Part shown: positions 939-61,739 of the stretch, piece by piece
Layout of the letters: the number at the start of each line of letters is the position of its first letter
How positions within the stretch are numbered: the stretch's first letter is position 1
NCBI GenBank assembly: GCA_965215595.1
Contig: CBDCDW010000005.1
Location: 940,323 to 1,004,322 of the forward strand
Source: an uncultured Candidatus Binatia bacterium
Lineage (GTDB): Bacteria; Desulfobacterota; Binatia; UBA9968; CAXXLF01
Direction: 5' to 3'
DNA: 64,000 nt
Notes under the pieces: generated by a model
What the model saw: the letters and a program-made list of their open reading frames with translations, nothing else
Databases searched by the model: none
Told to the model about the DNA's origin: nothing
Position numbers and translations under genes: made by a program

Positions 939-1276
939 GGTCCATCCCTCTCTTTTAATGGGAAATCACTAACCTCTAAACAGAACGAAGGGAGTAGATC
1001 ATAACGAATTTATGCTGTCAATTATTGAACAGAAATGATCTTCGCTCTAGGATTGAAGGTTCAAAAACCCTTGTCTAATAGGCCCAAAATCTAACCAAAT
1101 ATATATGAAATTTTGGGTTGAATTTTGGATTACGGAATCGGGAATAAGATGACTCTCGCAAAGACGCAAAGGACGCCAAGTTGGGAGAAAATAGCAAAAC
1201 TTTTCTCTTTGAGGGCTTGGCTCAGGCAAAGGCTGAGCCGTCCGCTGGCGGAGTCTTAGCGCGAAAGACTTTCGAA

Positions 1277-2356
1277 TCAGCGCGGCGGTAAGGGAGCGGG
1301 ACCGGCGATCTTTTTAAAAACCTTTATTGCTTCCGGATCACCTTGGAGTTCCATGACCGCCCTTGCTTGTTGGTCTGGCAATACCGGATTGGGAACTTCC
1401 CCGACTAATTTTTCCCATGTTTTGAGCAACCGTGGATCCTTGAAAAGCTTGGTGAACGCCTCCCTCAAAATTCTCACTCGCTCCTTTGGGATGCCGGGAG
1501 GCGCCAGGTAAGGCGAACCAACTAACCTGAGGTTACGGAAGGTCTGAAGTACATTTCTCTGCAAATCCGTCCTGGCGAAACGTTCTAAAGGAGGAAGATC
1601 TTGGAAGAGGGGATCACCACGGAAACCGCCGCGAAAACCTATGGGAATCTCCATGGCGGCATGGAAGTCTACGCGCCCCTCATCGATCCATTCAGGGGTC
1701 CGTTGAAAGACGGTAATGATGCTGGCCGCCCTGACGTCCACCTCCCCCCGCATCAAGGCCAGATCCATTTCCGGGCCAGAATAGCCAGTAACAAACTTGG
1801 GGTTCTTGAAATCAAGCAGCCAAGCGAAAAGTCTATTAAAGATGTAGACCGCGTGGCCGACTGATTGGGTTGCAATCCGTAAACCGGAGGCGGTCTGGAG
1901 CTTTTTCAGACTGTTCAGACCAAGCTCCTTTCTACTCATAAGGACATAATTGGCCTTGCTGTTGCTTGAGCCCAAGTAGGTAAATTTGGTAAGGTCATAG
2001 TTCACACTTGGTTGACCCAAAACAGCGTTGGCTACAAAGCCGCCGCCTATATTGCCAAGCGTCAGACCGCCAGCCCCGGCTGCCTTGTATAGATGATTGG
2101 CAGCCTTTCTACCCCCGGCCCCTGGCATATACTGTGCCACAATATTAGGATTCCCCGGTATGAGTTTAGGAAGAACTGATATAACAGCTCTGGTTCGCAT
2201 GTCCCCCAACCCACCGGGGTTACGTCCTTGAATAACTTTAATGGTCTTCCCTTTAAATAAGGAAGATTGTGAAGAGGCAAGACTTGGCAGGAACAGAAGG
2301 GTTGTAAATATTGCGCCCGAAACAACGGGTGGCGAAAGGCTAAGCTTATATTTCAT
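1277..2356 (-). CDS. Periplasmic solute-binding protein with signal peptide (TctC/Bug-like or related SBP)
   Basis: 359 aa ORF with an N-terminal hydrophobic signal (LLFLPSLASS). Gly-rich motifs NPGGLGDMRTRA and YMPGAGGRKAANHL resemble TTT-family receptors. Confidence 0.5.
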   Translation of the reverse strand: MKYKLSLSPPVVSGAIFTTLLFLPSLASSQSSLFKGKTIKVIQGRNPGGLGDMRTRAVISVLPKLIPGNPNIVAQYMPGAGGRKAANHLYKAAGAGGLTLGNIGGGFVANAVLGQPSVNYDLTKFTYLGSSNSKANYVLMSRKELGLNSLKKLQTASGLRIATQSVGHAVYIFNRLFAWLLDFKNPKFVTGYSGPEMDLALMRGEVDVRAASIITVFQRTPEWIDEGRVDFHAAMEIPIGFRGGFRGDPLFQDLPPLERFARTDLQRNVLQTFRNLRLVGSPYLAPPGIPKERVRILREAFTKLFKDPRLLKTWEKLVGEVPNPVLPDQQARAVMELQGDPEAIKVFKKIAGPAPLPPR

Positions 2357-2445
2357 CTTCTACCTCCTTCACGAAGGGCTATGGGGTGGCCCCGGGGTTT
2401 GAATTTCGGGGAGAGGCAGGGATTCACCTTCCGGGACACCGGCTA

Positions 2446-2815
2446 AATGTTCAACAGAAGATCTCCAAAAAATAAAGTTTTTCGCGCCAAGACGCCTCCA
2501 ATTTAAACCCGAAACCCAAGCTCGAAATCCCAAGCAAACCAGAACCCTCAACTCCAAAATTCAAAATTCAAAACGGGACTATTTGGAGTTTTATGTTTAT
2601 AGATCATTTGAATTTGTTTCGAATTTCGGATTTCAAATTTCGAATTTGTATCTTTAATTAAACTTAGCGTCCTCACGTCTTCGCTCCGCTCAGAATCTCA
2701 GATGCAAAATTTCAGATTTCATATCTGAGATTTGAGATTTGCCATTTGCAATGCGCTTCGCGGGCCTTTGCGCGAGTCATCTTTTCCCCGACTCTGTGAT
2801 TCGAAATTCAACGGA
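2446..2815 (+). repeat. Copy A of a roughly 370 bp structured intergenic repeat (near-identical 187 bp core at 2599-2785); second copy at 60155-60520
   Basis: Direct comparison of 2446-2815 with 60155-60520 shows a core with about 4 mismatches, flanks about 70% identical and the same orientation. Each copy has internal AAATC(C) and GATTTC(G) heptad arrays in opposite arms, and the palindrome TCTCAGATG...CATATCTGAGA. Confidence 0.8.
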
Positions 2816-2879
2816 AAAATTTAAATCTCTTGATCGAACTTGACTTAGGTCGAAATGGGAAATAGCTTGCTAGTTTAAT

Positions 2880-4469: not shown

Positions 4470-4823
4470 AAGCAGAGTTAAGCTTAGGGGTTAAAAAACA
4501 CCAATGTCAAGGGGCAGGTGGTGGTGAGCAAAGTCGAATCACGCTTCAGCGGCCTCTCGGCGCAAAGCCAAGTTCAACTATGTCATTGCGGGCTCAGGGG
4601 CCCGTCCCTCAGCGGGAGCCGATGGGTCTCTACCTCAAGGCCCCGTCATTTTATCTCAATGCCAAAGTGACATACCTCCCGTATCGGACGTCTCCCCAGC
4701 TTCAGACCAAGCCCCCTGCGCCCCCGTATTGCGCCATGTATAATCTAACCCAAGGGCGATACGTTGCGCCATTTGTGATTCTAACCCTCCAAGGGCTCAC
4801 ATTAGAGCTCAAGGAGGGCAACA

Positions 4824-5330
4824 ATGGAAGGGTTCACCATGGCACGACGATCCAAGCAGGAGTATTTACGATCCATCTATGATCGTTATCAGCACGCACC
4901 ACGGGCACAGAAGGGAACGATGCTAGAGGAATTCTGCAAGGTTTGCGGCTACAACCGCAAATATGCCATCTGGCTTTTAAACCGGCCCTTGCCCGAGGCA
5001 ACTGTACGCAAACGGGGTGCACCTCGCTCTCCTACATACAATCGGGCAATGGTAAGGATTTTGGCAAAGGTGTGGGAGGCCTCGGGGTATCTGTGCTCCC
5101 AACGTCTGAAGGCCGCCCTTGTACACTGGTTGCCCTGGATAAGGCAACACTTCGAGCTGACCCAACCGTTAGAGGATCAGCTCCTGGCCATCAGCGCCCG
5201 TCAGATGGATCGGCGCCTGAGGGAAACCAAGCACATCGTGAAACGCCGACTCTATGGCACCACTCGGCCCGGATCGCTACTAACCCGACTTAGCGGATTC
5301 GCGGGGTTCAGTGCTCGTAAGTACCTGTAA
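4824..5330 (+). pseudogene. Outer-IS transposase, N-terminal (HTH) part; interrupted by nested IS at 5281 (last 16 codons are read-through into the inserted element)
   Basis: The 168 aa ORF lacks a catalytic core. It continues in 7297..8121, which carries the DDE/rve core. Confidence 0.6.
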
Positions 5331-7290
5331 ATCAACGAGAGCTTCCAAAAGGTCTTCACTACATCGAGCTATTTCGCCACTTCACCTTTGGCCGTAACAC
5401 GGGGAGGCAGCTGACTGGGCAATGAAAGCCGCAGCTGCTCAAGCAAGACCTGGAGTTCGGGCTCAGGCTGTGTATAGCGTGACATGATCACCTTGCGTCC
5501 ATCAGTGGTCGGCAAATGCACGTCTATCATCTGAACAGCACCGAACTTTTCCAGAACCGATCGCGGTGTCAATCCCGGTGCCAAATCCCGCAGGTGGCGA
5601 CGCAAGGTCACATGCATGGCGTAAGCCATGAAGGCTACGAATATGTGAGCTTCGATGCGTTCCTCCTTCTGGTGGTGGATCGGACGGATCGCCAGATCAC
5701 CCTTGAGGTTCTTGAACGCTTCTTCGACCTGAACCAGTTGCATGTAGAACTCCCACATCTGTTCAGGCTCGCGTCCAACCAGGTTCGTTCTCAGCAAGTA
5801 ACGTCCTTCTCGGCGCCGGACCTTTTGTAGCTGGTCCTTTCGCAATGAGAACTGCACCGACCCATTGCCATCAGGGATGTCGATCCGAACCAGTCGCCAG
5901 GCCGAAGGCGATTGCTGCCTGGCGGCCCCGAGTTTCAGCAACAGCTCGTCACGCGTCAACTTCATGCCTTGTAGCTGCTTAAGCCGCCTCCACAGCTTCT
6001 TTAGTTGCCGACGCCGCATGGAGCGCTCCTTGTTGATGCGATCACGACTCTGTGCCAACACATACAACTCATCGTCTTGTGGTAGTAACTTGACCTCCAC
6101 TCCTTCGCGCACTGTATGCCACGGCTTGTCGATCAGCTCCTTCTCGTAACGGCTCAGTCGTCCCTTAGGCGTTCCCACCAGGTAATAGATCGGCGGAGTG
6201 CTTTCGCGCATCTGCTTGAGAACCTCCTCGGTCGGAATCCCCCGGTCCATCACCCAGATGCGCTCCGCTTTGCCGTACTGCTCCTCGATCTTGTTGAGAA
6301 ATCCACTCAACGTAGTCTTGTCGGCCGTGTTGCCGGCCATGACTTCATAGGCTAACGGGAACCCTTCCGGGGTCACGATCAGAGCAATCACCACTTGGAC
6401 ACAATCGAAACGCTTGTCACGGCTGTAACCATACTTTCGCTTGTCGTTTTCCGAAAAGGGTGGATTGCTCTCAAAGTAGGTGCTGGTCAGATCGTAGAGC
6501 AGCACGTCGAACTTTGCATTGAACAGATCCTTCCACCGTTGTGTCAGGTGATCAAAAAGCGCTTGCTTGTGACCCAGGAGCTGGTCCAGGCACTTGTAGA
6601 GCTTGTGGATCTCCACCAGTTCAAAGCCCGCCCCCAGACAATCGGCCATCGCGCTGTTGTCGTACCAGTGCCGATGTAACCGCCACTCGCTGCCAGGATC
6701 AATCAGCCGGTAGCAGCTCAACGCCTGCGTGATCAGATCCCAGCGCGTCCCCTTGCGGCTCGGCTCCAACCGTGTCGCCCAGAACTCATCGAGCCCCAAC
6801 TGCTCGTACAGGTGACAGGCCAGCCAGCATGCGCCCCACTGTCTGGGCCGGTGCAGTTCCAGATCCTTCAGCCGGATCTGCACCACTTCGTCGTCATCAA
6901 TTTCTACAGGCCGATCCTCGGCAAACAGTGCTATCGTACGCGGCAATACGGCTCCATCCTCGAAGACCTCGATGGTCTTACGCCATGCCTGATGCTGAGA
7001 GTCGTTGATCTCACCGAGATAGAGCACCTGGCGCTGAACGACTCGTCCACCTGTTACCCGGCGGTTCTCCACCACATTCCAGTAACGGTGTTCCTTGCCA
7101 TCTTTGTTGCGTTTCGTGCAACGTAAGAACATAGCGCACGTAGAATACTGCGTGTTGGGCAACCCTGAAAAGGGGGTAGGTCTTCACTACAGGCTGTTTA
7201 GGCCCATTTCGGGCTCACCTCGCCTTGGAAATTGGCTACTTAAAACGCGAAAAAAGTTATCGAGGGGGTCGAATCCGCTAAGTCGGGCTA
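5281..7290 (-). mobile_element. Nested IS1634-family (IS4 superfamily) insertion sequence, about 2.0 kb, with 22 bp terminal inverted repeats (18 bp perfect core)
   Basis: taAcccgacttagcggattcg at 5281-5302 is the reverse complement of 7269-7290 with one mismatch. The element contains a single 597 aa transposase ORF. Confidence 0.7.
5369..7162 (-). CDS. IS1634-family DDE transposase
   Basis: 597 aa. LLYDLTSTYFE (first D block), VMDRGI (second D) and a C-terminal HQKEERIEAHIFVAFMAY block fit the IS4/IS1634 transposase (DDE_Tnp_1) layout. Confidence 0.65.
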   Translation of the reverse strand: MPNTQYSTCAMFLRCTKRNKDGKEHRYWNVVENRRVTGGRVVQRQVLYLGEINDSQHQAWRKTIEVFEDGAVLPRTIALFAEDRPVEIDDDEVVQIRLKDLELHRPRQWGACWLACHLYEQLGLDEFWATRLEPSRKGTRWDLITQALSCYRLIDPGSEWRLHRHWYDNSAMADCLGAGFELVEIHKLYKCLDQLLGHKQALFDHLTQRWKDLFNAKFDVLLYDLTSTYFESNPPFSENDKRKYGYSRDKRFDCVQVVIALIVTPEGFPLAYEVMAGNTADKTTLSGFLNKIEEQYGKAERIWVMDRGIPTEEVLKQMRESTPPIYYLVGTPKGRLSRYEKELIDKPWHTVREGVEVKLLPQDDELYVLAQSRDRINKERSMRRRQLKKLWRRLKQLQGMKLTRDELLLKLGAARQQSPSAWRLVRIDIPDGNGSVQFSLRKDQLQKVRRREGRYLLRTNLVGREPEQMWEFYMQLVQVEEAFKNLKGDLAIRPIHHQKEERIEAHIFVAFMAYAMHVTLRRHLRDLAPGLTPRSVLEKFGAVQMIDVHLPTTDGRKVIMSRYTQPEPELQVLLEQLRLSLPSQLPPRVTAKGEVAK

Positions 7291-7296
7291 AAGCAG

Positions 7297-8121
7297 ATGA
7301 TCCCGATTAAGACCGATCACTGGGATGTGAACCGGCCGGGCTATCTGGAGATTGACCTGGTGTCACACTCAGGGGCCTCAGCGGTTGGGGAGTTTGTCCA
7401 TAGTCTGGACTGTGTCGACATTGCTACCTGCTGGGTAGAGCGCAAGGCCGTCATGGGTAAGAGCGCTTTGGGTGTCTTGAATGCGGTCACCGAGATCGAA
7501 CACCAGCTTCCTTTTCCCCTCAAGGGGATCGACTCCGACAACGGCAGTGAGTTTATCAACAACCGCCTTCTTGCCTTCTGTCAACAACGCCCAGCTGGCC
7601 ACACCATTCAGTTCACCCGCTCGCGTCCCTACAAAAAAGATGACAACGCGCACATCGAGCAGAAAAACTGGACCCATGTCAGAAAGCTTATGGGCTGGGA
7701 TCGCTACGACACCGCAAAGGCCCAAGAGGCCGCCAACCAGCTCTATGATGAACTTAGGATCTTCCAGAATCTGTTCCAGCCCTCCATGAAGCTGCGATGC
7801 AAGATCCGTATAGGCTCTCGACTTATTCGCCGCTATGACACGCCTCGTACCCCGTTCGAACGGGTCGTGGAGTCCCGAAAGGGAGACCCCAAAAAGCTGG
7901 CAGCCCTCAAGCACACGCTTAAGACAACTGATCCCTTCGAGCTCTCTACCCGAATCGATCAGCAACTGCAGCGGATCTACAAGCTGGCCAGCCATGCAGA
8001 CAGAGCCCCACGAGAGAGACCACCGCTGAAACAAACGCCGTGGAGAAACTGGACCTTCAGCAAGAAACTACAGCGCCAACAACAGGACATGAAACGACAG
8101 ATGCGAGACGACTTCGGTTAG
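7297..8121 (+). pseudogene. Outer-IS transposase, C-terminal rve (integrase-core) DDE part
   Basis: Contains GIDSDNGSEFIN and a downstream E block typical of the rve catalytic core. It has no HTH N-terminus of its own. The 3' end lies inside the right IR. Confidence 0.6.
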
Positions 8122-8514
8122 ATTTTGTAATGACGCAACGAATCCCGCTAGGGTTAGATTTTTTGATGGCTTAACACGCCCCAACATGCGTGCCGAGTAA
8201 TGAGTGCTGAGTACTGAGCCGGGAAAAATGAAAGTCGGGGAGGGCTCAAGGTTCTCCCTGAGCGAAACATGGACGGAGCAGCGGGCTACCCACCGTGGTC
8301 GGCACCGCATGAATGCCGGAGTCCGCCCACGGCTAATCTGAGATCCGGAAGGTTCGTGCGAGCGCCGGCCCGGTGGGTCGCTGCGGGAGTCCCGTGGAGC
8401 GAGGGGAGTGAGGAAGCCCTCATGTTACAGGTCTATTACCCACGGCCGGGCTTCGACGATGAGCGCAGCCGAACCGAGGCTCGCTCCCCGAGGAGACATT
8501 TCGCACCACAGTTT

Positions 8515-21372: not shown

Positions 21373-21597
21373 TCATCCGATATGAATTAGCTTTTTTCTA
21401 CTCGTCGCGCCTCGTATGATCCTCACAGATGATTTTGAAGTCGAAAAGTAACTCGCCAAAAGCTCAATCAGCGCCTCATTAGCTTTCCCCTGGCGCGCAG
21501 GTGCTCGCACTGAGGCGATGAAGCTACCGTCGGGGGATTTCACGAACTCTTCCATCTTGGCCCGCGGCTTGACGGTAACCCAAATTTTTAAAGCCAT
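21373..21597 (-). CDS. DUF167 (YggU-like) family protein
   Basis: 74 aa. The IWVTVKPRAK...G.ANEALIELL pattern is typical of DUF167. Confidence 0.55.
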   Translation of the reverse strand: MALKIWVTVKPRAKMEEFVKSPDGSFIASVRAPARQGKANEALIELLASYFSTSKSSVRIIRGATSRKKLIHIG

Positions 21598-21907
21598 AGT
21601 AACGATTACTCGCCCTGTGGAATAGTGCTTGAGGCAAACAACTTGACCTCGGTCGAGTCGTTATTCCACGGGGCGAGGCGCAAAGGACGAAGCAAAAACA
21701 GGAGGCAGTGAGCAGTGGGCAGCAATTCGGACTACGAATTACAAGACAGCAAGCAGCAAGTATTCGATCCCTCCGCCTGGGTTTTCTGAATTCAGATTGG
21801 CCTACTGCATACTACCTACTGCTACCTGCCTACTAGTTTCCCTTGACGCAAAAATCTTTCTTGCAGTCCTTTTGTTTAACATTCAATCAGTAAGAGTCTA
21901 ATCAACC

Positions 21908-22201
21908 CTAGGCGGGTTTCCATTCGAATGGGAGGCGAACCTTTTTTTCCGTGTTGCACTTCTTACAGCTTGGCACCACGTTTCCTTTAGTGCTCTTGCC
22001 GCCTCGGGCAATGGGTACTAGATGATCCATGGTGAGCTCACGTGCTGGGAATTTACCCCCACAGTGATGGCAAATCCCCTTGGATCGTTTTTGCTTCCAC
22101 CACTGGGTTGAGCGCAACTCCCTCGCCCTACTGCGCTCACGCTGGATGTCCTCCTCGCTAGCAAAGATGAAAACTGAGTCCGGGTTATCACTTCGCGTCA
22201 T
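21908..22201 (-). CDS. HNH endonuclease (small, stand-alone)
   Basis: CHHCGGK...MDHLVPIARGG...NVVPSCKKCN gives HNH with flanking Zn-binding Cys pairs. Confidence 0.7.
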   Translation of the reverse strand: MTRSDNPDSVFIFASEEDIQRERSRARELRSTQWWKQKRSKGICHHCGGKFPARELTMDHLVPIARGGKSTKGNVVPSCKKCNTEKKVRLPFEWKPA

Positions 22202-26638: not shown

Positions 26639-27392
26639 AGGTATCCCTCAACGATCGAAAATAGAGTAATTAATTTTTTGTGACGGGATCTGCCGAGAAG
26701 GGAATAAAAAGAACCTTGCTGAACTGCCGCTTATTTATCGACCCCACTCCATCCCAAGCCGCACGGCCGCCACTTCATTGATCAATCAAACTAACTTAAA
26801 ATATACCGCATCTGCACCTGAATTTGAAGGTCGTGCAGGGCAAATAATTCAACCCAGATAAGGAAAAACCCTTTATGGGCATGCAAATCCTACCCTCTGG
26901 AGGAGCTAATGACGGGTTTGCCAAATAAGCACGAAGGTTACTGACTCAGACCTTTTCCATTTGACCACACGTGTAGGGCTGGAGTTGGAGAAAGAACATC
27001 CGCTCTTAGTTCTTGATATTAAAGGGAATGTTTGTCTTGAAAACGTTCTCCCTACCCTGCGAAGTCCCCTTCTACACAAAGGCACTCCCTCCCGTGGACA
27101 CGGAGCCGGCCTGGAACCGCTGCAAGAACGAAATCAGGCAGGGCAGGTAGCTCCAATCCTCTATCTCCACTATTCTCTCTTAAAGATAAAGGTTAATTCC
27201 ATAGAACTGAGTAGCCACTCTGAGCCTGGATTGGCTCAGTGTCAGACCCCTTGGAAGCAATTCATGGACTAGTTAAATTCGATTGGTATTTTTTGGGGTC
27301 TATTGGAACGTATCCTATGGCATGATCGCGAGTCTCCTGTTGAAATTTACTCGAGCAAAGACGTATAGCATTCTGGGAGGTGATAATTATTT

Positions 27393-32591: not shown

Positions 32592-32780
32592 ATGTCAGGA
32601 AACGACTGGCCACGCTCCGGCAGACATATAATCCACCAGAAAAATTTCTCTACCCTTCCTCATTTTCTGCAATGTGAAATGTCACGTCTAATCAGGCTTG
32701 GAGCCGCTCTGGGCTTGGGTTTGCTCAGTGTCAGACCGCCAGGACGCAACTCATGAGCTAGTTAAATGCTTCCTACGTGC

Positions 32781-36342: not shown

Positions 36343-36929
36343 TCAACTCGCTGCCAGATCTCGGCCGGATCAAAAGAGACCATGATCGCTGGAAAGAGCA
36401 GAACAAGCGCCCCCACAGCATACATGCCCACACCCACCTCCACTGAGGCCAGTTCCACGATTTTGATGAGTGCAACCAGGATGCCGAGCAGCATCACTTC
36501 ATTCATCGACCACGGGCGCATGGAGTCGGCCCAGCGCAACATCTCACCCACCCAACGGGGCGCCGGCGGCCGCCGCGCCGCTAGCAGGACGGTCAGCATA
36601 AAAACAATGTAGCCTGCCGGAGCGATCAACGCGCAGAACACGACGACCAGGGCTGTGATTTCCTGGCACTGCACCCACATCTGATGCGCGCCGACGACGA
36701 TGGTCGTGCTTGCCTGGCGCCCCACGGCCGACATCCCCATCAGCGGCGCGGTGTTGGCAACGATTAGGGCGATCAGCGCGGTGATGGTGAGCGCGAGCGG
36801 GCGATGGAGCGGGTCGATGTTCCGCGACGCAACCATGCGGCTGCAGCGCGGGCAGCGCGCCTTGCCCCCCGGCGGGAGCTCTGGCAGTTGCTGTAGCAAA
36901 TCGCAATCGGGACAAGCAATGGTCTCCAT
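36279..36929 (-). CDS. Paraquat-inducible protein A (PqiA) family membrane protein, first copy
   Basis: N-terminal CPDC...CPRC Zn-ribbon and TM helices. Overlaps the next pqiA-like ORF by 64 nt in another frame; a single frameshifted two-repeat pqiA cannot be excluded. Confidence 0.6.
   Translation of the reverse strand: METIACPDCDLLQQLPELPPGGKARCPRCSRMVASRNIDPLHRPLALTITALIALIVANTAPLMGMSAVGRQASTTIVVGAHQMWVQCQEITALVVVFCALIAPAGYIVFMLTVLLAARRPPAPRWVGEMLRWADSMRPWSMNEVMLLGILVALIKIVELASVEVGVGMYAVGALVLLFPAIMVSFDPAEIWQRVEWANGVFPPQMTSRPPGARAT
36841..36929 (+). repeat. Direct repeat pair derived from the pqiA 5' end (36841-36929 and 38777-38871, 38 bp core nearly perfect) bracketing the zntB-like segment
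   Basis: ctgcagcgcgggcagcgcgccttgccccccggcgggag matches ccgcagcgcgggcagcgcgccttaccccccggcgggag. Confidence 0.7.
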
Positions 36930-38758: not shown

Positions 38759-38871
38759 CCGAAGCTTTGCGGGGAACCGCAGCGCGGGCAGCGCGCCTTA
38801 CCCCCCGGCGGGAGTTCCGATACGCGTTGCAACAGATAGCAATCAGGGCAGGCAATACATTCCACAAGCGC
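38752..38871 (-). pseudogene. Fragment (40 codons, no start) of a pqiA-like gene N-terminus, convergent with and overlapping the zntB-like stop
   Basis: Minus-strand translation ALVECIACPDCYLLQRVSELPPGGKARCPRCGSPQSFGQD closely matches the start of 36279..36929 (METIACPDCDLLQQLPELPPGGKARCPRC...). The 38-bp nucleotide identity is described under the repeat feature at 36841-36929. Confidence 0.6.
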
Positions 38872-41960: not shown

Positions 41961-42160
41961 TTAGTGGCGACAAAAACTTGTCACTAACTGACGTTAATGT
42001 AGGCCATTGACGAGAAGTGTACCGACACAGGCTGCACCCTGTAAAATGTAAAGGTCCCACCGCACATTTTGACCCCGTATCTTATCCTTGAAAAGCCGAA
42101 CGCAAACCCCTGCGTCAATCAGGTTACTGCGTCTTTTCCCAGGCCTATAGACCCCTTACA

Positions 42161-42406
42161 TTATTTGGGATCCATCGTCACAACAACCTCCCGGCCCTTT
42201 ATTTTATACTTTAACTTCAAAAGCTGCTTATTCTGGTTATACCAGACAGAAATTTTCCACTCGCCAGAGAAAACAAACCTGCTGGCAGGAATGGTTCGCT
42301 CGCCTATAGAAACAGCGTCCTTACTTTCGCTAAGCTTAGCACTTGAGGCAAACGAGAGGAGCTGTTTCGTATACCTTGCGGATAAAGAAAAAATGCGTCT
42401 CCTCAA
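42161..42406 (-). pseudogene. Truncated paralogous copy (3' 80 codons) of gene 43321..43953
   Basis: Peptide ..SESKDAVSIGERTIPASRFVFSGEWKISVWYNQNKQLLKLKYKIKGREVVVTMDPK against ..SESKDVVSIGERSIPASRFDFSGEWKIAVWYDQNKQLLKIKYKIRGRDVVVTMDPK. About 90% nt identity over about 195 bp (42140-42335 vs 43296-43495), extending past the stop codon. Confidence 0.7.
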
Positions 42407-43119: not shown

Positions 43120-43320
43120 ATGAATGATAAGAATTTCATTTGGGGCATGGGCTTAGAACCGGAAGAATTTCAATGTGATAGAGTATCCCCTGAGATTTGA
43201 AATTGAGTTGAATTTAACAGATTCCAATGCGGGATCGAGAGCTTTATCCGGTACCCTATACTGGGGATGAACTTGAGATGATTCGCCCTCGATTAATTAG
43301 GGGCATCTAGGCGCCCTACA

Positions 43321-43953
43321 TCATTTGGGATCCATCGTCACAACAACATCCCGGCCCCTTATTTTATATTTTATCTTCAAAAGCTGCTTATTCTGGTCAT
43401 ACCAGACCGCAATTTTCCACTCGCCAGAGAAATCAAACCTGCTGGCAGGAATGGATCGCTCGCCTATGGAAACAACGTCCTTACTTTCACTAATCTTGAC
43501 CTTCATCAACCGGAGATCTTTAAGGTCAAAGAGGAGCGACTTTTGTGTGATTTTGTAATGCCAAACGGACGTCGGAAAGGCATCGTGCGGCAGCGTCAAA
43601 CGTTTGCCGTTCAGCACAACATCATACTCTTTTACATTACGTTGGAGCGACAACTCGTAAATTTTACCATGATCGTCGGTGTATCCCTGGATGCTTTTGG
43701 GTTCCTCATCTTTCCACACCTCATGCAGATCCTGCGTGAAGTAATGAAGTTTAATCCCAAGTATGGATACCGAGCTTCGCGTCCTGAGTTCTTCTACCAT
43801 CCCCTTTTCGTTGAGTCGAAGCGTGTAGTGAACGGAGCCGATTTTTTTTTCATTCAGATGAATCGAAGCGAAATGATTTTGATCCGCTGCGCCTGCGACG
43901 TGTGAAACAACGAGCACCGCTAGCACGGTCAAACATAGTGCGAGTCGCGACAT
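43321..43953 (-). CDS. Secreted hypothetical protein (210 aa); donor of the duplicated 3' fragment at 42161..42406
   Basis: Signal peptide LAVLVVSHVAGAADQ. Confidence 0.5.
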   Translation of the reverse strand: MSRLALCLTVLAVLVVSHVAGAADQNHFASIHLNEKKIGSVHYTLRLNEKGMVEELRTRSSVSILGIKLHYFTQDLHEVWKDEEPKSIQGYTDDHGKIYELSLQRNVKEYDVVLNGKRLTLPHDAFPTSVWHYKITQKSLLFDLKDLRLMKVKISESKDVVSIGERSIPASRFDFSGEWKIAVWYDQNKQLLKIKYKIRGRDVVVTMDPK

Positions 43954-44232: not shown

Positions 44233-45033
44233 TTAGCTACCAAGCTCCCTATGGAGGAACTCGAAACTTCTCGCATAGGACAGGTTGGTGGCCGACCGCT
44301 GGTCGGCCGGCACTTCAGCATCCGGAGTGATTTGGGCAAAGCTATGCCCCATTCCTTCATACCAGTGCAACTCGTAGGCCTTGCCAAAATGGTTCAATGC
44401 ACGGGAAAAAGCATCCACCTCGGCGCGAGGGGTCGAGTGGTCCTCTGTTCCATAGTGACATTGAAGCTTGCAGGTGATTGTTTCCAGCTCACGCATATCC
44501 GGGAACAGACTCTGGTGGTAGATGACGCCGGCCTGGAAGACTTCGGTACGACCGTGTTAAGCCATCAAAAAATCTAACCCTAGCGGGATTCGTTGCGTCA
44601 TTACAAAATCTAACCGAAGTCGTCTCGCAGCCAGCAGGGCCAACCCGCCGCCCAGGCAGAATCCCATAATCCCAACTTTGCTCCGGGGTCCCACTGACGG
44701 AAGGCTACGCAAAAACGCCACGCCCCCGGCGATTTGTTCCACCGCCGCTTTTACATCCAGCGAGTTTTTCGCGTAAAGTCCCTCGGTTCTATTGGCCGGT
44801 AACTGGCCACCCATGTAGTCGGGCGAAAGCGCCACAAACCCGGCCCGCGCAAACAGACGTGTGATCTCCCGCTGAGTCCAGGTGAGGCCACCCATACCGG
44901 ACAGCAAGACCACGCCTGGCCGTGGCGGTCCATCCGCCGGGCGGGCCACGAAGCCGTCTGAGTAGAAACCGTTGGTCTCGTACCCGGCGTGGAGTGAGTT
45001 CGGGCGAAAGCGCCACGATGCGTTCGCCGTCAA
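44233..45033 (-). pseudogene. Dienelactone hydrolase family gene disrupted by a 77 bp IS-end footprint
   Basis: N-part (44557..45033) carries GFCLGGG. C-part (44233..44496) carries HYGTEDHSTP...WYEGMGHSF. Between them, 44553-44629 is identical to the reverse complement of the outer-IS right end (8102-8178) and supplies the aberrant C-terminus RLRLDFVMTQRIPLGLDFLMA. Confidence 0.65.
44553..44629 (-). mobile_element. Solo IS terminal-repeat remnant (77 bp, 100% identical to the right end of the IS at 4725-8178 in inverted orientation)
   Basis: gtgttaagccatcaaaaaatctaaccctagcgggattcgttgcgtcattacaaaatctaaccgaagtcgtctcgca equals rc of 8102-8178. Confidence 0.8.
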
Positions 45034-58763: not shown

Positions 58764-60134
58764 TCATTCCAACTCCTTTAGACGCCGCCGGACATTGGAG
58801 GAGGCGGTTCCCCCCGGGGCACGGCGTCGTTCCACAACTTCTTCTAGGGACAGACAACGGTACACGTCCTTTTCGATTTTTGGGCAATACCGTTGCAACT
58901 CCTTAAGTGAGAGATCCTCGATCCTCTGGTGGAATGACAGACAATGGCGGACGATCTTCCCCACCAGTCCATGGGCGGCGCGAAAGCTCATGCCACGGCG
59001 AACCAGGTAATCCGCGAGGTCGGTTGCGTTCATAAACCCATCTTGTGCGGCAGCGAGCATCCTTTCTCTTCTGACCTTCGTCTCCTTTACCAGCTCCGCC
59101 ATCATGGCAAGGCTCGCCTTAACGGTATCCACAGTATCAAATAGCGGAATCTTGTCCTCCTGAAGGTCACGGTTATAGGACAGGGGTAACCCTTTGATCA
59201 CTGTCAGAAGGGCTTGGAGGTGTCCGTACACCCTACCCGTTCGCCCACGGATCAACTCTGGGACGTCGGGGTTCTTTTTCTGCGGCATGATGGAACTTCC
59301 CGTGCAGTATCGGTCCGGAAGCTCGATGAACCCGAACTCCTCACTAGACCACAACACCATCTCCTCGGCAAGACGACTCAAGTGGGCAAAAAGGATGGCC
59401 GAAACAGCGAGGAATTCCAGCACAAAGTCCCGATCACTGACCGCGTCCAAACTATTCTTGGACAACTTGGGGAAACCCAGCAACCTCGCCACATAGGCCC
59501 GATCGATGGGGAAGGTAGTCCCCGCCAATGCCCCCGAGCCCAGGGGCAGTACGTTCACCCGCTTGGCACACTCCCCCGCACGCTCAAGGTCCCGATCCAG
59601 CATTTCCACGTAGGCAAGAAGGTGGTGGGAGAAGAGAATGGGCTGCGCCCGTTGCATGTGAGTGTAACCCGGCATGATCACCTTCAAGTTGCGCTTTGCT
59701 GAGCGCACGAGTTCTGCCTTTAATCGGTTAAGGGCCGTCTGAACGGCCTTTAGCTCCTCCCTGAGATAGAGGCGCATATCCAACGCCACCTGATCATTGC
59801 GGCTCCTGGCAGTATGAAGCTTTCCTGCTGCAGCGCCGATTTTGTGAAAGAGTCGGCGTTCAATATTCATATGAATGTCTTCATCGGTCTGGGAGAAGGT
59901 GAAAGCGCCTCTTTGAATCTCCTTTTCGATGAGGTTAAGGCCCCTAACGATCTTTGCTGCATCTACCCGAGAGATAATCCTCTGGCGGCCGAGCATCCGC
60001 GCATGAGCAATGCTGCCTTCGATATCGTATGCGTACAATCTTTTATCCACAGCAATGGACGAGGTAAAGGCCTCTACGGAGCTTGCCATGGCCTCGTCAA
60101 ATCGTCCCGCCCAGAGCTTTTTCTTTTTCGCCAT
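58764..60134 (-). CDS. argH: Argininosuccinate lyase
   Basis: Fumarate-lyase signature [12 protein letters not shown] is present. 456 aa. Confidence 0.9.
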
Positions 60135-60154
60135 TGCTAGATTCTCACCGATAG

Positions 60155-60520
60155 AATGTTCAACAGAACGACTTCAACAAGGATTTTCGCGCCAAGACGC
60201 CCCCAGGTTAAAATCCTAAATCCGAAGCACGAAATCCTAAACAAACCGAACCCTTAAATCCAAAATTCGAAATCTAAAACGAAATTGTTTGGAATTTTCT
60301 GTTTTTTGATCATTTGGATTTGTTTCGAATTTCGGATTTCGAGTTTCGAATTTGTATCTTTAATTAAACTTAGCGTCCTCACGTCTTCGCTCCGCTCAGA
60401 ATCTCAGATGCAAAATTTCAGATTTCATATCTGAGATTTGAGATTTGCCATTTGCAATGCGCTTCGCGGGCCTTTGCCCGAGTCATCTTTTTCCCGATTC
60501 CATCATTCAAAATTCTTATG
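60155..60520 (+). repeat. Copy B of the roughly 370 bp structured intergenic repeat (core 60308-60493); fills the whole argG-argH intergenic region
   Basis: See copy A (2446-2815). Confidence 0.8.
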
Positions 60521-60527
60521 GTTAGAC

Positions 60528-61739
60528 TTAACCTCCGGTTTTCTTATTCTTTTGCAGCCGTCGAAGCCTCAGACGCAAGGCGTTTAGTTTTATAAAGCCA
60601 TCCGCATCGGCCTGGTGATAATCGCTATCCTCCTCAAAGGTAGCTACCTTGGGATCATAGAGAGAGGAATTCGATTGCCTTCCAGCCACCGTGGCATTTC
60701 CCTTGTAGAGCTTCAGCCGGACCCGGCCTGTCACATTCTCCTGGGAGCCATCCATGGTTTTTTGCAGGAGCTCCCGCTCCGGGGAAAACCAGTAGCCATT
60801 ATAGACCAACTGTGAATATTTGGGGATCAACGAGTCGCGCAATCTCATGACCTCCCGATCCATGGTGATGGACTCCAGCGCCCGACGTGCCTGGTGCAGG
60901 AGAGTACCTCCAGGGGTCTCATAGACACCGCGTGCCTTCATACCCACGTAGCGATCCTCCACCAGATCCACCCTTCCCACTCCGTGTTTCGCTCCCAGGG
61001 CATTCAAATCGGTGAGTAGTGCAGCCGGGGACTTGGTTGTTCCGTTCAAGGTCACTGGATCTCCACGGCGAAAATCAATCTCAATGTATTCACCGCGATC
61101 AGGCGCCTTCTCGGGTGAAGTGGTCCAGAGAAACATATCGGCGGGTGGTTCCTGCCATGGATTCTCTAGGATGCCCCCTTCGTAGCTAATGTGAAAGAGA
61201 TTTCGGTCGACGCTGTAGGGTCTTTTACGGCTTACCGGGACAGAAATGCCCTGACGCTTCGCATAGGAGATCAAGGACTGGCGCGAGTTAAGATCCCAGA
61301 TCCTCCATGGGGCAATCACCTTCACATCTGGCTTCAATGCGTAGTAGGTCAACTCAAATCGGATTTGATCGTTTCCTTTGCCCGTGGCGCCATGGGCCAC
61401 TGCATCGGCCCTTTCCTTTGCGGCCACCTCCATTTGTCTCCTTGCTATCAAGGGACGGGCAATGGAGGTCCCTAACAGATAGGACCCTTCATAAACTGCG
61501 TTGGCACGCAGCATTGGAAAGATATAATTTTTGACGAACTCTTCCCGCAGGTCATCCACAATGACCTTGCTCGCCCCGGTCTCTTGGGCTTTTCGTCTCA
61601 CTGCCTTCAAGTCTTCCTCTTGCCCGAGATCGGCGCAGTAGGCAACGACGTCGCACTCATACTGCTCCTTGATCCAGCGTAGGCAAACCGAGGTGTCCAA
61701 TCCACCAGAGTATGCCAAGACGACTTTCTTAACCTTCAT
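60528..61739 (-). CDS. argG: Argininosuccinate synthase
   Basis: [10 protein letters not shown]-loop. 403 aa. Confidence 0.9.

Follow-up and report, generated by a model that had tools for sequence, protein, structure and literature searches.

Two intergenic spacers in a 64,000-nucleotide stretch of DNA from an uncultured Candidatus Binatia bacterium (contig CBDCDW010000005.1; the whole stretch is called the window below) carry the same repeat, with a core that is nearly identical in the two copies and flanks that have diverged. The question raised by this locus is whether the core has been held constant by selection. A preliminary description of the DNA took that view of the pattern and named four candidates: a cis-regulatory leader RNA, an iteron-like protein-binding array, a MITE (a miniature transposable element with inverted repeats) and a small RNA gene present twice. 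Our analysis favors the third, with a probability of about 0.75: the two copies, A and B, would be members of a dispersed, non-coding, AT-rich family of MITE-like insertions in an uncultured Candidatus Binatia lineage, and their common cassette would have been acquired by conversion.

Two long copies with a nearly identical center

Copies A (~2400-2841) and B (~60135-60527) align from end to end within non-coding spacers of ~390 bp. Both lie where they had been placed before, and only the extents given then (2446-2815 and 60155-60520) need revision, the element reaching somewhat farther when delimited with nhmmer. The two copies and their parts are as follows.

2400-2841, plus strand: copy A, long form (nhmmer extent, wider than 2446-2815)
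~2400-2500: left end module L1/L2 of copy A, with AATGTTCAACA at 2448-2458 and TTTTCGCGCCAAGACGCC at 2481-2498
2501-2652: heptad hairpin of copy A
~2661-2684: remnant of the short-form inner stem in copy A, AACTTAGCGTCCTCACGTCTTCGC
~2685-2750: second cassette of copy A, a TCTCAGATG...CATATCTGAGA palindrome plus GAGATTT heptads
2651-2750, plus strand: tract of 100 nt at 100% identity, equivalent to 60357-60456 of copy B
2751-2776: R2 GC hairpin of copy A
2774-2841: right end module R1 of copy A, GAGTCATCTTTTCCCCGA...
60123-60535, plus strand: copy B, long form (nhmmer extent), lying antisense to the operon and taking up the whole argG-argH spacer (60135-60527)
60141-60158: left terminus of copy B, CTAGATTCTCACCGATAG
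~60510-60523: right terminus of copy B, ATGGTTAGACTTAA, with the argG TAA stop codon inside the junction

A repeat search of the window returned the A/B pair as 273 nt at 91% identity, and BLAST aligned the cores at 97.4% over 190 nt with ~5 differences, close to the four or so reported earlier. Along copy A, identity to copy B is 66% at the left end (2437-2480), 95% over 2481-2500, 77% in the left heptad arm (2501-2598), 90% in the right arm (2599-2650), 100% over 2651-2750, 95% over 2751-2791 and 52% in the remaining right end. The heptad periodicity is evident from autocorrelation peaks at lags 7 and 14. Two diagnostic motifs have counts far above those of shuffled sequence (seven occurrences of one against 0.17 expected, and two of the other against none). 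The perfect palindrome (TCTCAGAT/ATCTGAGA) and the GC-rich clamp (GCGCTTCGCGGGCC) of the preliminary description are also both present.

A dispersed family with conserved ends and variable middles

The repeat is not limited to two copies, as had been supposed. A sensitive search of the window uncovered two further, partly degenerate members, making four in 64 kb, and other contigs hold more.

1086-1270, minus strand: third member, short form (~185 nt), beginning right behind the stop codon of a TctC-like gene
21600-21905, minus strand: fourth member, with a YggU-family gene (21373-21597) on one side and an HNH gene (21908-22201) on the other

In the third member the outer left module is missing, and the right module, which is complete, ends in TTTGGTTAGATTTT. 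The fourth has a good left end (TTAGACTCTTACTGATTGAATGTTAAACA...), a central cassette of GCAGTAG/CTGCTCA heptads, and a right end broken up by another palindrome. Searches for a 24-nt pattern from the shared right end, with 19 bases specified, yielded one true relative (L009) among the GTDB representative genomes, which evidently do not include the source species, along with three matches of the kind and number expected by chance, and eight true relatives in JGI metagenomes, in which the ends are the same and the middles differ. Outside the window, the element occupies about eight distinct loci in other contigs, with unrelated neighbor genes.

Members range from 185 to 442 bp and have a GC content of 39-47%, compared with 52% for the window. 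The conserved left module reads (Y)TAGAYTCTNACCGATGGAATGTTCAACA...TTTTCGCGCCAAGACGCCAAG (also written (Y)TAGAYTCTNACCGATGGAATGTTCAACA...CACTTCAACAAAGNTTTTCGCGCCAAGACGCCAAG) and the conserved right module CTTTGCGCGAGTCATCTTTTTCCCGATTCCGTAATCCAAAATTCAAC...TTTGGYTAGA (also written CTTTGCGYCTTTGCGCGAGTCATCTTTTTCCCGATTCCGTAATCCAAAATTCAAC..AAATTTCAAATACCTTTGGYTAGA), and the basic short form consists of these two modules with a GC-rich hairpin between them. What lies in the middle varies. The short forms (L009, L012/L018, L016, L019 and the third member in the window) have a loop of ~50 nt, and L020 has an additional GC hairpin. The middle of L015 is a palindrome of the GTCATCCCGAACGAATGTGAGGGATCT type, and that of L013, L014 and L017 one of the CGCAGATTNACGC type. 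Heptads fill the remaining members, GCAGTAG in the fourth window copy and AAATCCG in copies A and B and in L011.

Beside the third copy, the 150 nt that separate it from the next gene (938-1085) contain TTTCTGTTCAATAATTGAC and GGTTAGTGATT. These look like a left module that has degenerated and points the other way, possibly what is left of a further element.

Filled and empty sites, short and long forms

Orthologous sites with and without the element were found at two loci. In L021 (ArgH 78% identical, on a 3.36-Mb contig), argG and argH are separated by 8 nt (GGT TAG GATTGCCC ATG) and the element is absent. The same spacer measures 195 nt in L019 (ArgH 96%), 229 nt in L020 (ArgH 88%) and 393 nt in the window, the element being of the short form in L019 and in the next outgroup, L020, and of the long form in the window species. 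Taking copy B and one flanking direct repeat out of the window sequence reconstructs a spacer of 8 nt, which matches L021 at 13 of 20 positions in an ungapped alignment. Four states of the argG-argH site have thus been seen: empty, short, short with an extra hairpin, and long. Likewise, the spacer 3' of the TctC-like gene is 88 nt without the element in L022, a sister genome represented by the same contig as L019, and 338 nt with it in the window. As filled and empty orthologous sites show, the element inserts into intergenic DNA in either orientation.

The sister genome carries plain short forms of ~190 nt at both sites orthologous to copies A and B. Therefore, the long cassette was acquired later, in the window lineage, and the long form appears to be the derived state. 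Within the window species, copy B is retained in all strains, which differ from one another by one 7-nt unit or by TTAA; one strain lacks the same unit, CAAATCT, in copy A. Since strains differ by one heptad unit, the heptads slip.

Two side observations concern the copy A site. In the sister genome (L022:5600-5900) it holds two short forms in tandem, the second with AAAATCC heptads replacing its right module; toward its right end the single long copy A matches the first of these elements, and toward its left end the second, a pattern suggestive of a past fusion or duplication. In another sample of the same species (L023:8080-9540), an IS256-family element (Transposase_mut, 443 aa) lies inside the right end module of copy A, flanked by an 8-bp duplication (CAAGAGAT), and this insertion is found neither in the window nor in L024.

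Gene neighborhood and orientation

The genes next to the two long copies are the following, and the gene calls bear out the context first described, a solute-binding protein gene starting at 2356 and the argG-argH spacer.

1277-2356, minus strand: TctC-like solute-receptor gene, with copy A upstream and the third copy downstream
58764-60134, minus strand: argH, with copy B directly upstream
60528-61739, minus strand: argG, its stop codon falling where the gene joins the right terminus of copy B

The TctC-like gene has no Pfam match itself; its homologues are named TctC or carry PF03401, and it was characterized through them, the protein look-up holding no record of the exact sequence. Copy B lies in an argD-argF-argG-argH-lysA-dapFAB cluster. 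ArgH homologues are named as belonging to Candidatus Binatia or to 'Deltaproteobacteria bacterium' metagenome-assembled genomes, and the argG-argH locus is also present on a 4.0-Mb long-read contig.

We assigned members to orientation classes after checking their flanking genes with Pfam. Four are co-oriented with genes: L009, which precedes an NMT1-type binding protein gene, L016, which lies between a metal-resistance gene and an HlyD-type gene, and the third and fourth window copies. Copy B, L011 (tctC-tctB) and L015 (nitroreductase-hydantoinase B) are antisense between co-directional genes, copy A and L012/L018 lie between divergent genes, and L014 and L017 between convergent ones. Two short or degenerate copies, one in the window and one in L014, directly follow a stop codon, and the distinct loci that we examined show no bias toward gene 3' ends or convergent gene pairs. 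A and B do agree in their orientation to the downstream gene, as noted earlier, but this is not a property of the family, whose orientation relative to genes is arbitrary.

Origin of the near-identical core

Alignment of the long and short forms revealed what the long form has gained. It retains the right inner stem of the short form (AACTTAGCGTCCTCACGTCTTCGC versus AACTTAGCGTCCTTTGCGTCTTTGCG) and carries two additions: a heptad hairpin of ~150 nt that replaces the left inner stem and the loop, and a GAGATTT-type palindromic cassette of ~90 nt within the right stem. The AAATCCG/CGGATTT hairpin and the GAGATTT palindrome are nested cassettes. The ends tell a different story from the middle, those of copy B being 89-90% identical to the ends of L019 and only 52-66% identical to those of copy A. 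Moreover, the tract of high identity cuts through the long hairpin, with the right arm inside it and the left arm outside.

Since so composite a middle cannot plausibly have arisen twice, and since the sister genome has short forms at both sites, the comparison argues for copying into resident elements; most likely, the composite cassette was copied into pre-existing elements at both loci in the window lineage. On the simplest account, the donors of the composite middle were other long-form copies, and the short elements residing at both loci received it through ectopic gene conversion, a non-reciprocal homologous recombination for which the conserved end modules served as primers. The most recent conversion tract would span ~2621-2791 (>=95% identity) and center on 2651-2750, and the number of heptad units changes by slippage as well. 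Copying of a cassette into pre-existing elements would explain why a 100%-identical center stands between old, diverged ends. A tract boundary inside the long hairpin likewise fits recombination and not selection on a structural unit.

The earlier interpretation, that a near-identical core between diverged flanks denotes constraint, is therefore not supported, in view of core-less sister sites, empty sites, arbitrary orientation and the split hairpin. Segmental duplication, which had been put forward as a circumstance that would overturn that interpretation if the second copy lay in a duplicated segment with its flanking genes, is excluded because the genes flanking A and B are unrelated.

Pairing within the hairpins differs between the two copies. 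In copy B the arms pair equally well on both strands (-33.9 and -35.2 kcal/mol). In copy A the hairpin reaches -21.9 kcal/mol on the plus strand versus -34.5 kcal/mol on the minus strand, where it includes 11 G-U pairs; without these minus-strand G-U pairs, the left arm would not pair with the right arm that the two copies share. Such pairing fits an overwriting of the right arm of copy A.

Termini and a candidate mobilizing transposase

A 7-nt inverted core, TCTAACC/GGTTAGA, is found at both termini and extends to as many as 17 of 21 positions in L019; the strong inverted repeat of the element (CGCGCCAAGACGCC/GGCGTCTTTGCGCG) is subterminal. In independent copies (Y)TAGAYT precedes the left end, and the right end closes with GGYTAGAYT. 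Flanking direct repeats were read in L012 (TTAGATT/TTAGATT, 7/7), L019 (CTAGACT/TTAGACT, 6/7) and copy B (CTAGATT/TTAGACT, 5/7). From its sequence, this flanking repeat could be a 6-7-bp duplication at a preferred target or a motif of the element itself. The preliminary description had reserved the label of a plain MITE for many degenerate copies with target-site duplications, and this picture was largely recovered: dispersed degenerate copies were found, but clean duplications were not.

One weak lead to a source of transposase lies in the window.

4700-8180, plus strand: rve-type insertion sequence (IS), a nested IS region

Its transposase gene (4824-5330 and 7297-8121) is split by an IS1634-family element, whose own transposase is encoded at 5369-7162 on the minus strand, and its family matches are weak (IS481, E = 2e-5; rve, E = 4e-4). 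Each end of the rve-type IS (4740-4790 and 8102-8178) contains two copies of AWTCTAACC(N)AAGG, and 13 of the 14 positions of this end motif agree with the termini of the element (p = 0.001-0.004 against shuffles), the 14-nt variants being AATCTAACCCAAGG, AAATCTAACCGAAG and GATTCTAACC. An rve-family IS transposase recognizing AWTCTAACC..AGG termini could plausibly mobilize the element in trans, although this lead is unproven.

Other features of this IS were noted in passing. The outer rve-type IS has imperfect inverted ends of ~70 nt, each with two copies of GCGYCAT-N5-6-AWTCTAACC. A segment of 77 nt at 44553-44629 is 100% identical, in inverted orientation, to its right end (8102-8178) and stops abruptly at 44629; by its sequence it would be either an IS end standing alone or the border of some other element. 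The IS copy appears to be flanked by CCCC and not CTAG, which bears on an IS481-like NCTAGN target reading of (Y)TAG.

Several points weigh against reading A and B as MITE-like insertions with a converted cassette. The terminal inverted repeat is short and exceeds shuffles in only three of seven copies (L012, L019 and copy B, p = 0.006-0.045; not in L009, L015, L016 or L020), and two of those three, L019 and copy B, represent the same argG-argH locus. The (Y)TAGAYT repeat is not cleanly a target-site duplication, since independent loci have it in conserved form and part of it coincides with the terminus motif. In the rve-type IS the common motif lies ~20 nt inside the tip, nothing else is shared with the element, and an autonomous parent whose ends match in full was not found. 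The copy density, ~1 per 20 kb, has been extrapolated from about 79 kb. As for the cassette, the strand asymmetry of copy A could hint at selection at the RNA level, with copy B lacking any such asymmetry, and a left arm at 77% beside a center at 100% is not explained by a single conversion, so that more events or donors would be needed.

The unconvincing inverted repeats, together with the dominance of hairpins, could also indicate an element of REP/REPIN or IS200/IS605 derivation (PATE-like), moved as single-stranded DNA by a Y1 (RAYT/TnpA) transposase. The direct motif TAGAYT, common to the left flank and the right end, would agree with this, since its arrangement resembles the relation of target and cleavage site in IS200/IS605 elements. 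We nonetheless consider such a derivation improbable. No Y1 transposase, RAYT gene or TnpB was seen among the open reading frames (ORFs) inspected, the ORF and Pfam checks covering a subset of the window and the fetched loci, and the aligned ends have no GTAG/CGTC-type head. Size and bipartite conserved ends fit a MITE or BOX element better, and the terminus motif matches the ends of the rve-type IS.

Structure, transcription signals and coding potential

Could the core instead be a cis-regulatory leader or intercistronic RNA on the minus strand, of the riboswitch, attenuator or processing-site kind, kept by selection? Both long copies have the same orientation to the downstream gene, a third heptad-bearing copy (L011) also has the minus strand as sense, and the minus strand of the whole element (391 nt) folds to a lower minimum free energy than the plus strand (-98 versus -78 kcal/mol), with the 11 G-U pairs of the copy A hairpin adding to this impression. 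Against dinucleotide shuffles, however, the folds show no excess stability (z-scores of -0.29 and -0.65), and the pairing in copy B is free of strand asymmetry. Rfam 15 at gathering score detected only tRNA elsewhere in the window and nothing in the repeat; an E-value search of 2300-2900 gave only plant MIR444, a spurious hit of 22 bits against a gathering score of 110 (E = 0.05). The combined Rfam and fold search, which had been proposed as a check, thus revealed neither an RNA family nor folds better than shuffles. The downstream genes (argH and the TctC-like gene) are unrelated, the sister genome has core-less short forms at both sites, L021 has no element, and the identity tract splits the hairpin. 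Neither a fixed orientation or position nor conservation in relatives was found, and because members occur in every orientation relative to genes, a leader RNA is not expected. We regard this explanation as scarcely probable.

On the plus strand, the R2 GC hairpin is followed by TCATCTTTTT, a terminator-like arrangement, and in both long copies a GC hairpin of this kind and then TCATCTTTT stand at the 3' end of the core. A small RNA gene in two copies, reading on the plus strand and ending here, would account for this, and small RNAs derived from MITEs are known in Coxiella (PMC10969869). Yet the hairpin and T-run are not core-specific, because they are present in the right module of every member, short forms included. 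On the plus strand, copy A contains no promoter-like site, and the single one detected at the edge of copy B does not rise above shuffle level; with no Rfam match either, a small RNA gene seems very improbable. More generally, neither a scanner nor manual inspection of the conserved ends found sigma-70-like promoters above shuffles.

Selection on the heptads as an iteron-like array for a DNA-binding protein, though in keeping with their regular 7-nt periodicity and with similar heptads directly upstream of start codons in the unrelated contigs L031 and L034, deserves very little credence, given that 7-bp spacing would put successive sites on different faces of the helix, that unit number varies between strains by slippage and the arrays form complementary hairpin arms, that the 100% center (2651-2750) lies outside the AAATCCG/CGGATTT arms and covers unique sequence (2651-2684) plus the GAGATTT heptads, and that no candidate binding protein is linked to the arrays.

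We also examined the element for coding potential and for effects on its host. All six frames are interrupted by stop codons. The only recurrent ORF start, ATGACTCGCGCAAAG ('MTRAK..'), runs into non-conserved sequence of variable length, and six-frame peptides of the core and right module had no match at E <= 1e-3 among 5.8 billion proteins. On the minus strand of copy B, the sense strand of the arg operon, no hairpin with a U-tract was found, so read-through is plausible. After the insertion, the old Shine-Dalgarno region at the argG end is 390 nt away. The ATG of argH is preceded at 9 nt by GGTGAG, the left terminus of the element (CTCACC) read as its reverse complement, and this terminus may serve as a substitute ribosome-binding site for argH. 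Otherwise the effect on the host would probably be passive, a strongly structured segment of ~390 nt being added to the argG-argH transcript. No evidence points to a dedicated function.

Three candidate signals were considered and rejected: a sigma-54 reading of TTGGCTAGA, on account of its spacing; a small ORF on the reverse strand (GGGAAAAAG ATG ACT CGC GCA AAG), of which only the first ~5 codons are conserved, because these lie inside the conserved DNA module, with length and sequence diverging afterward; and an ArgR box in copy B, since its sequences are also found ahead of genes of other kinds and in contigs with no relation to this one.

Comparison with known elements

Prokaryotic MITEs are typically <500 bp, lack a transposase or conserved ORF and have terminal inverted repeats of ~4-30 bp (PMC10969869, section 2.1). 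They are further described as having target-duplication repeats in young copies, dispersed intergenic copies, AT-rich stem-loop transcripts and an autonomous IS acting in trans (PMC10969869). The Binatia family agrees in its length and absence of a conserved ORF, in its filled and empty sites, in its multiple dispersed intergenic copies and in being AT-rich with stem-loops, the folding energies of which (-78 to -98 kcal/mol) are no better than those of shuffles. Of the four candidates first proposed, the MITE is accordingly the one that size, lack of coding capacity, dispersal, base composition and filled versus empty sites support.

In its layout of conserved ends and a variable middle, the family most resembles, by analogy, the BOX elements of pneumococcus and the long variants of ERIC. 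BOX elements of S. pneumoniae are modular (boxA-boxB(n)-boxC), MITE-like and 67-637 bp long (PMC3184786). Like the Binatia family, they are transcribed with their neighbors, form stable hairpins and have other repeats nested inside them (PMC10969869). In both, conserved but non-identical end modules surround a variable middle in non-coding intergenic DNA. The two have no sequence relation and belong to different phyla; the Binatia middle consists of alternative hairpin cassettes of 7-8-nt repeats and not of boxB units, and transfer of cassettes between resident copies is proposed for the Binatia family.

ERIC elements reportedly lie, in either orientation, in intergenic DNA that is transcribed; related species may have or lack them at orthologous sites, and longer variants arise through internal insertions. 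The Binatia elements have in common with them the imperfect palindrome, the free orientation, the filled and empty sites and the long variants with internal insertions; unlike them, they have longer end modules (~60 and ~100 nt) that are not mirror images, and insertions of up to ~260 nt built of repeats. ERIC (or IRU) of Enterobacteriaceae are imperfect palindromes of ~127 bp placed in the MITE class (PMC3184786).

Other families are less similar. The Correia elements (NEMIS) of Neisseria are small, multi-copy and intergenic, are often co-transcribed, exist in long as well as short versions and can provide regulatory signals (PMC10969869). The Binatia family resembles them as a set of small multi-copy intergenic insertions with long and short forms. 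Correia elements have clear 26-bp terminal inverted repeats, a TA duplication, defined promoters and an IHF site, none of which is demonstrable in the Binatia family. With SPRITE elements the Binatia element shares a GC-rich hairpin and T-run on one strand. Tandem heptanucleotide repeats also occur in intergenic DNA as the STRR of cyanobacteria, and Nezha-type MITEs have both filled and empty orthologous sites (PMC3184786). Both differ from the Binatia elements in heptamers and phylum, the Binatia heptads being complementary hairpin arms nested in another element. The BIMEs and REP clusters of E. coli, and REPINs, are likewise mosaics of palindromic units in intergenic regions, whose evolution reportedly involves both gene conversion and the formation of hairpins (PMC3116915, PMC2817692); the Binatia units are larger, with long unique ends, and no 20-40-nt unit of the REP kind was seen in them. 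The family is thus undescribed but ordinary in kind, MITE-like with a modular layout in the style of BOX and ERIC.

These results have practical consequences. Binatia spacers of ~200-440 bp are better masked as repeats than mined as riboswitch or small RNA candidates, and such repeats also account for assembly breaks and spurious small ORFs. A conserved core between diverged flanks can be a signature of recombination and need not mean constraint, and the argG-argH locus is a clean natural example of a single insertion site in four states, with ends that remain orthologous and an internal cassette that would pass from one resident copy to another. In addition, an essential biosynthetic operon, argG-argH, tolerates a hairpin-rich insert of 390 nt.

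Heptad-armed hairpin modules in other contigs

The modules nested in the long form also occur on their own, with almost the same sequence, in unrelated IMG/VR contigs. A 22-nt pattern from the right arm of the heptad hairpin, for which ~0.1 chance hits are expected, matched 12 loci (13 matches; L025-L036) on viral-classified IMG/VR contigs of 54-67% GC. These are stand-alone intergenic hairpins or half-hairpins without the Binatia end modules; examples are L032:6410-6580, L029:4580-4679 and L035:100-254. The hairpins keep CGAAACAAATYCAAA / TTTGRATTTGTTTCG near the apex, and some contigs carry one arm only, directly upstream of a start codon. Arrays of (GAGATTT)n alone, as well as the GC hairpin TCGCGCCAAGACGCCAAG...CTTGGCGTCTTTGCGCGAGTC with its T-run (also written CGCGCCAAGACGCCAAG...GCGCGAGTC) alone, occur in unrelated IMG/VR contigs of 49-68% GC (L037-L042). 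The right-end pattern of the element was not found in IMG/VR, blastn detected no match of copy B to PLSDB plasmids or of the stand-alone heptad hairpin to GenBank phages, and a full-text literature search returned no paper with the heptad strings, searches combining MITE and heptanucleotide giving only general reviews.

The long form is therefore a mosaic, and the modules that make it up are found again and again in phage-like contigs and uncultured bacteria. It is possible, though on balance doubtful, that the modules form an undescribed class of hairpins with arms of 7-8-nt tandem repeats, which cross lineages, are perhaps phage-borne, nest preferentially in the centers of existing palindromes and then spread between resident MITE copies. 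Such a class may act as a second-order parasite or 'mobile terminator' system. Its building blocks would be the CGGATTT/AAATCCG hairpin with CGAAACAAATYCAAA, the GAGATTT arrays, the GCTGACT/GCAGTAG arrays and the CGCCAAGA-type hairpin ending in GCGCGAGTC and a T-run. What generates and spreads heptad-armed modules is the wider question raised by this finding and the only part of it with real potential for novelty.

Some individual contigs have features of their own. The hairpin of L035 appears, by eye, to lie between two tRNA-like sequences. In L042 the GC hairpin resembles a classic terminator just before a Shine-Dalgarno sequence and ATG. L030 has CGGATTT and GCTGACT heptad arrays together, the latter resembling the cassette of the fourth window copy.

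Additional observations

Three unrelated direct repeat pairs were noted in the window, 42142-42337 / 43302-43497 (196 nt, 90%), 36843-36920 / 38779-38856 (78 nt, 79%) and 27213-27278 / 32702-32767 (66 nt, 82%); they are probably paralogous genes or other repeats. In a 4x contig of the same species (L006:1-2240), argG is called only as its C-terminal 105 aa and is preceded by a 611-aa ORF on the opposite strand, with copy B intact alongside, a state that probably reflects an IS insertion in argG or an assembly join. In the sister genome (L019:13273-14174), dapF, intact in the window species, seems disrupted: no more than 72 aa of it are called, and the interval from lysA to dapF holds an ORF of 134 aa on the opposite strand.

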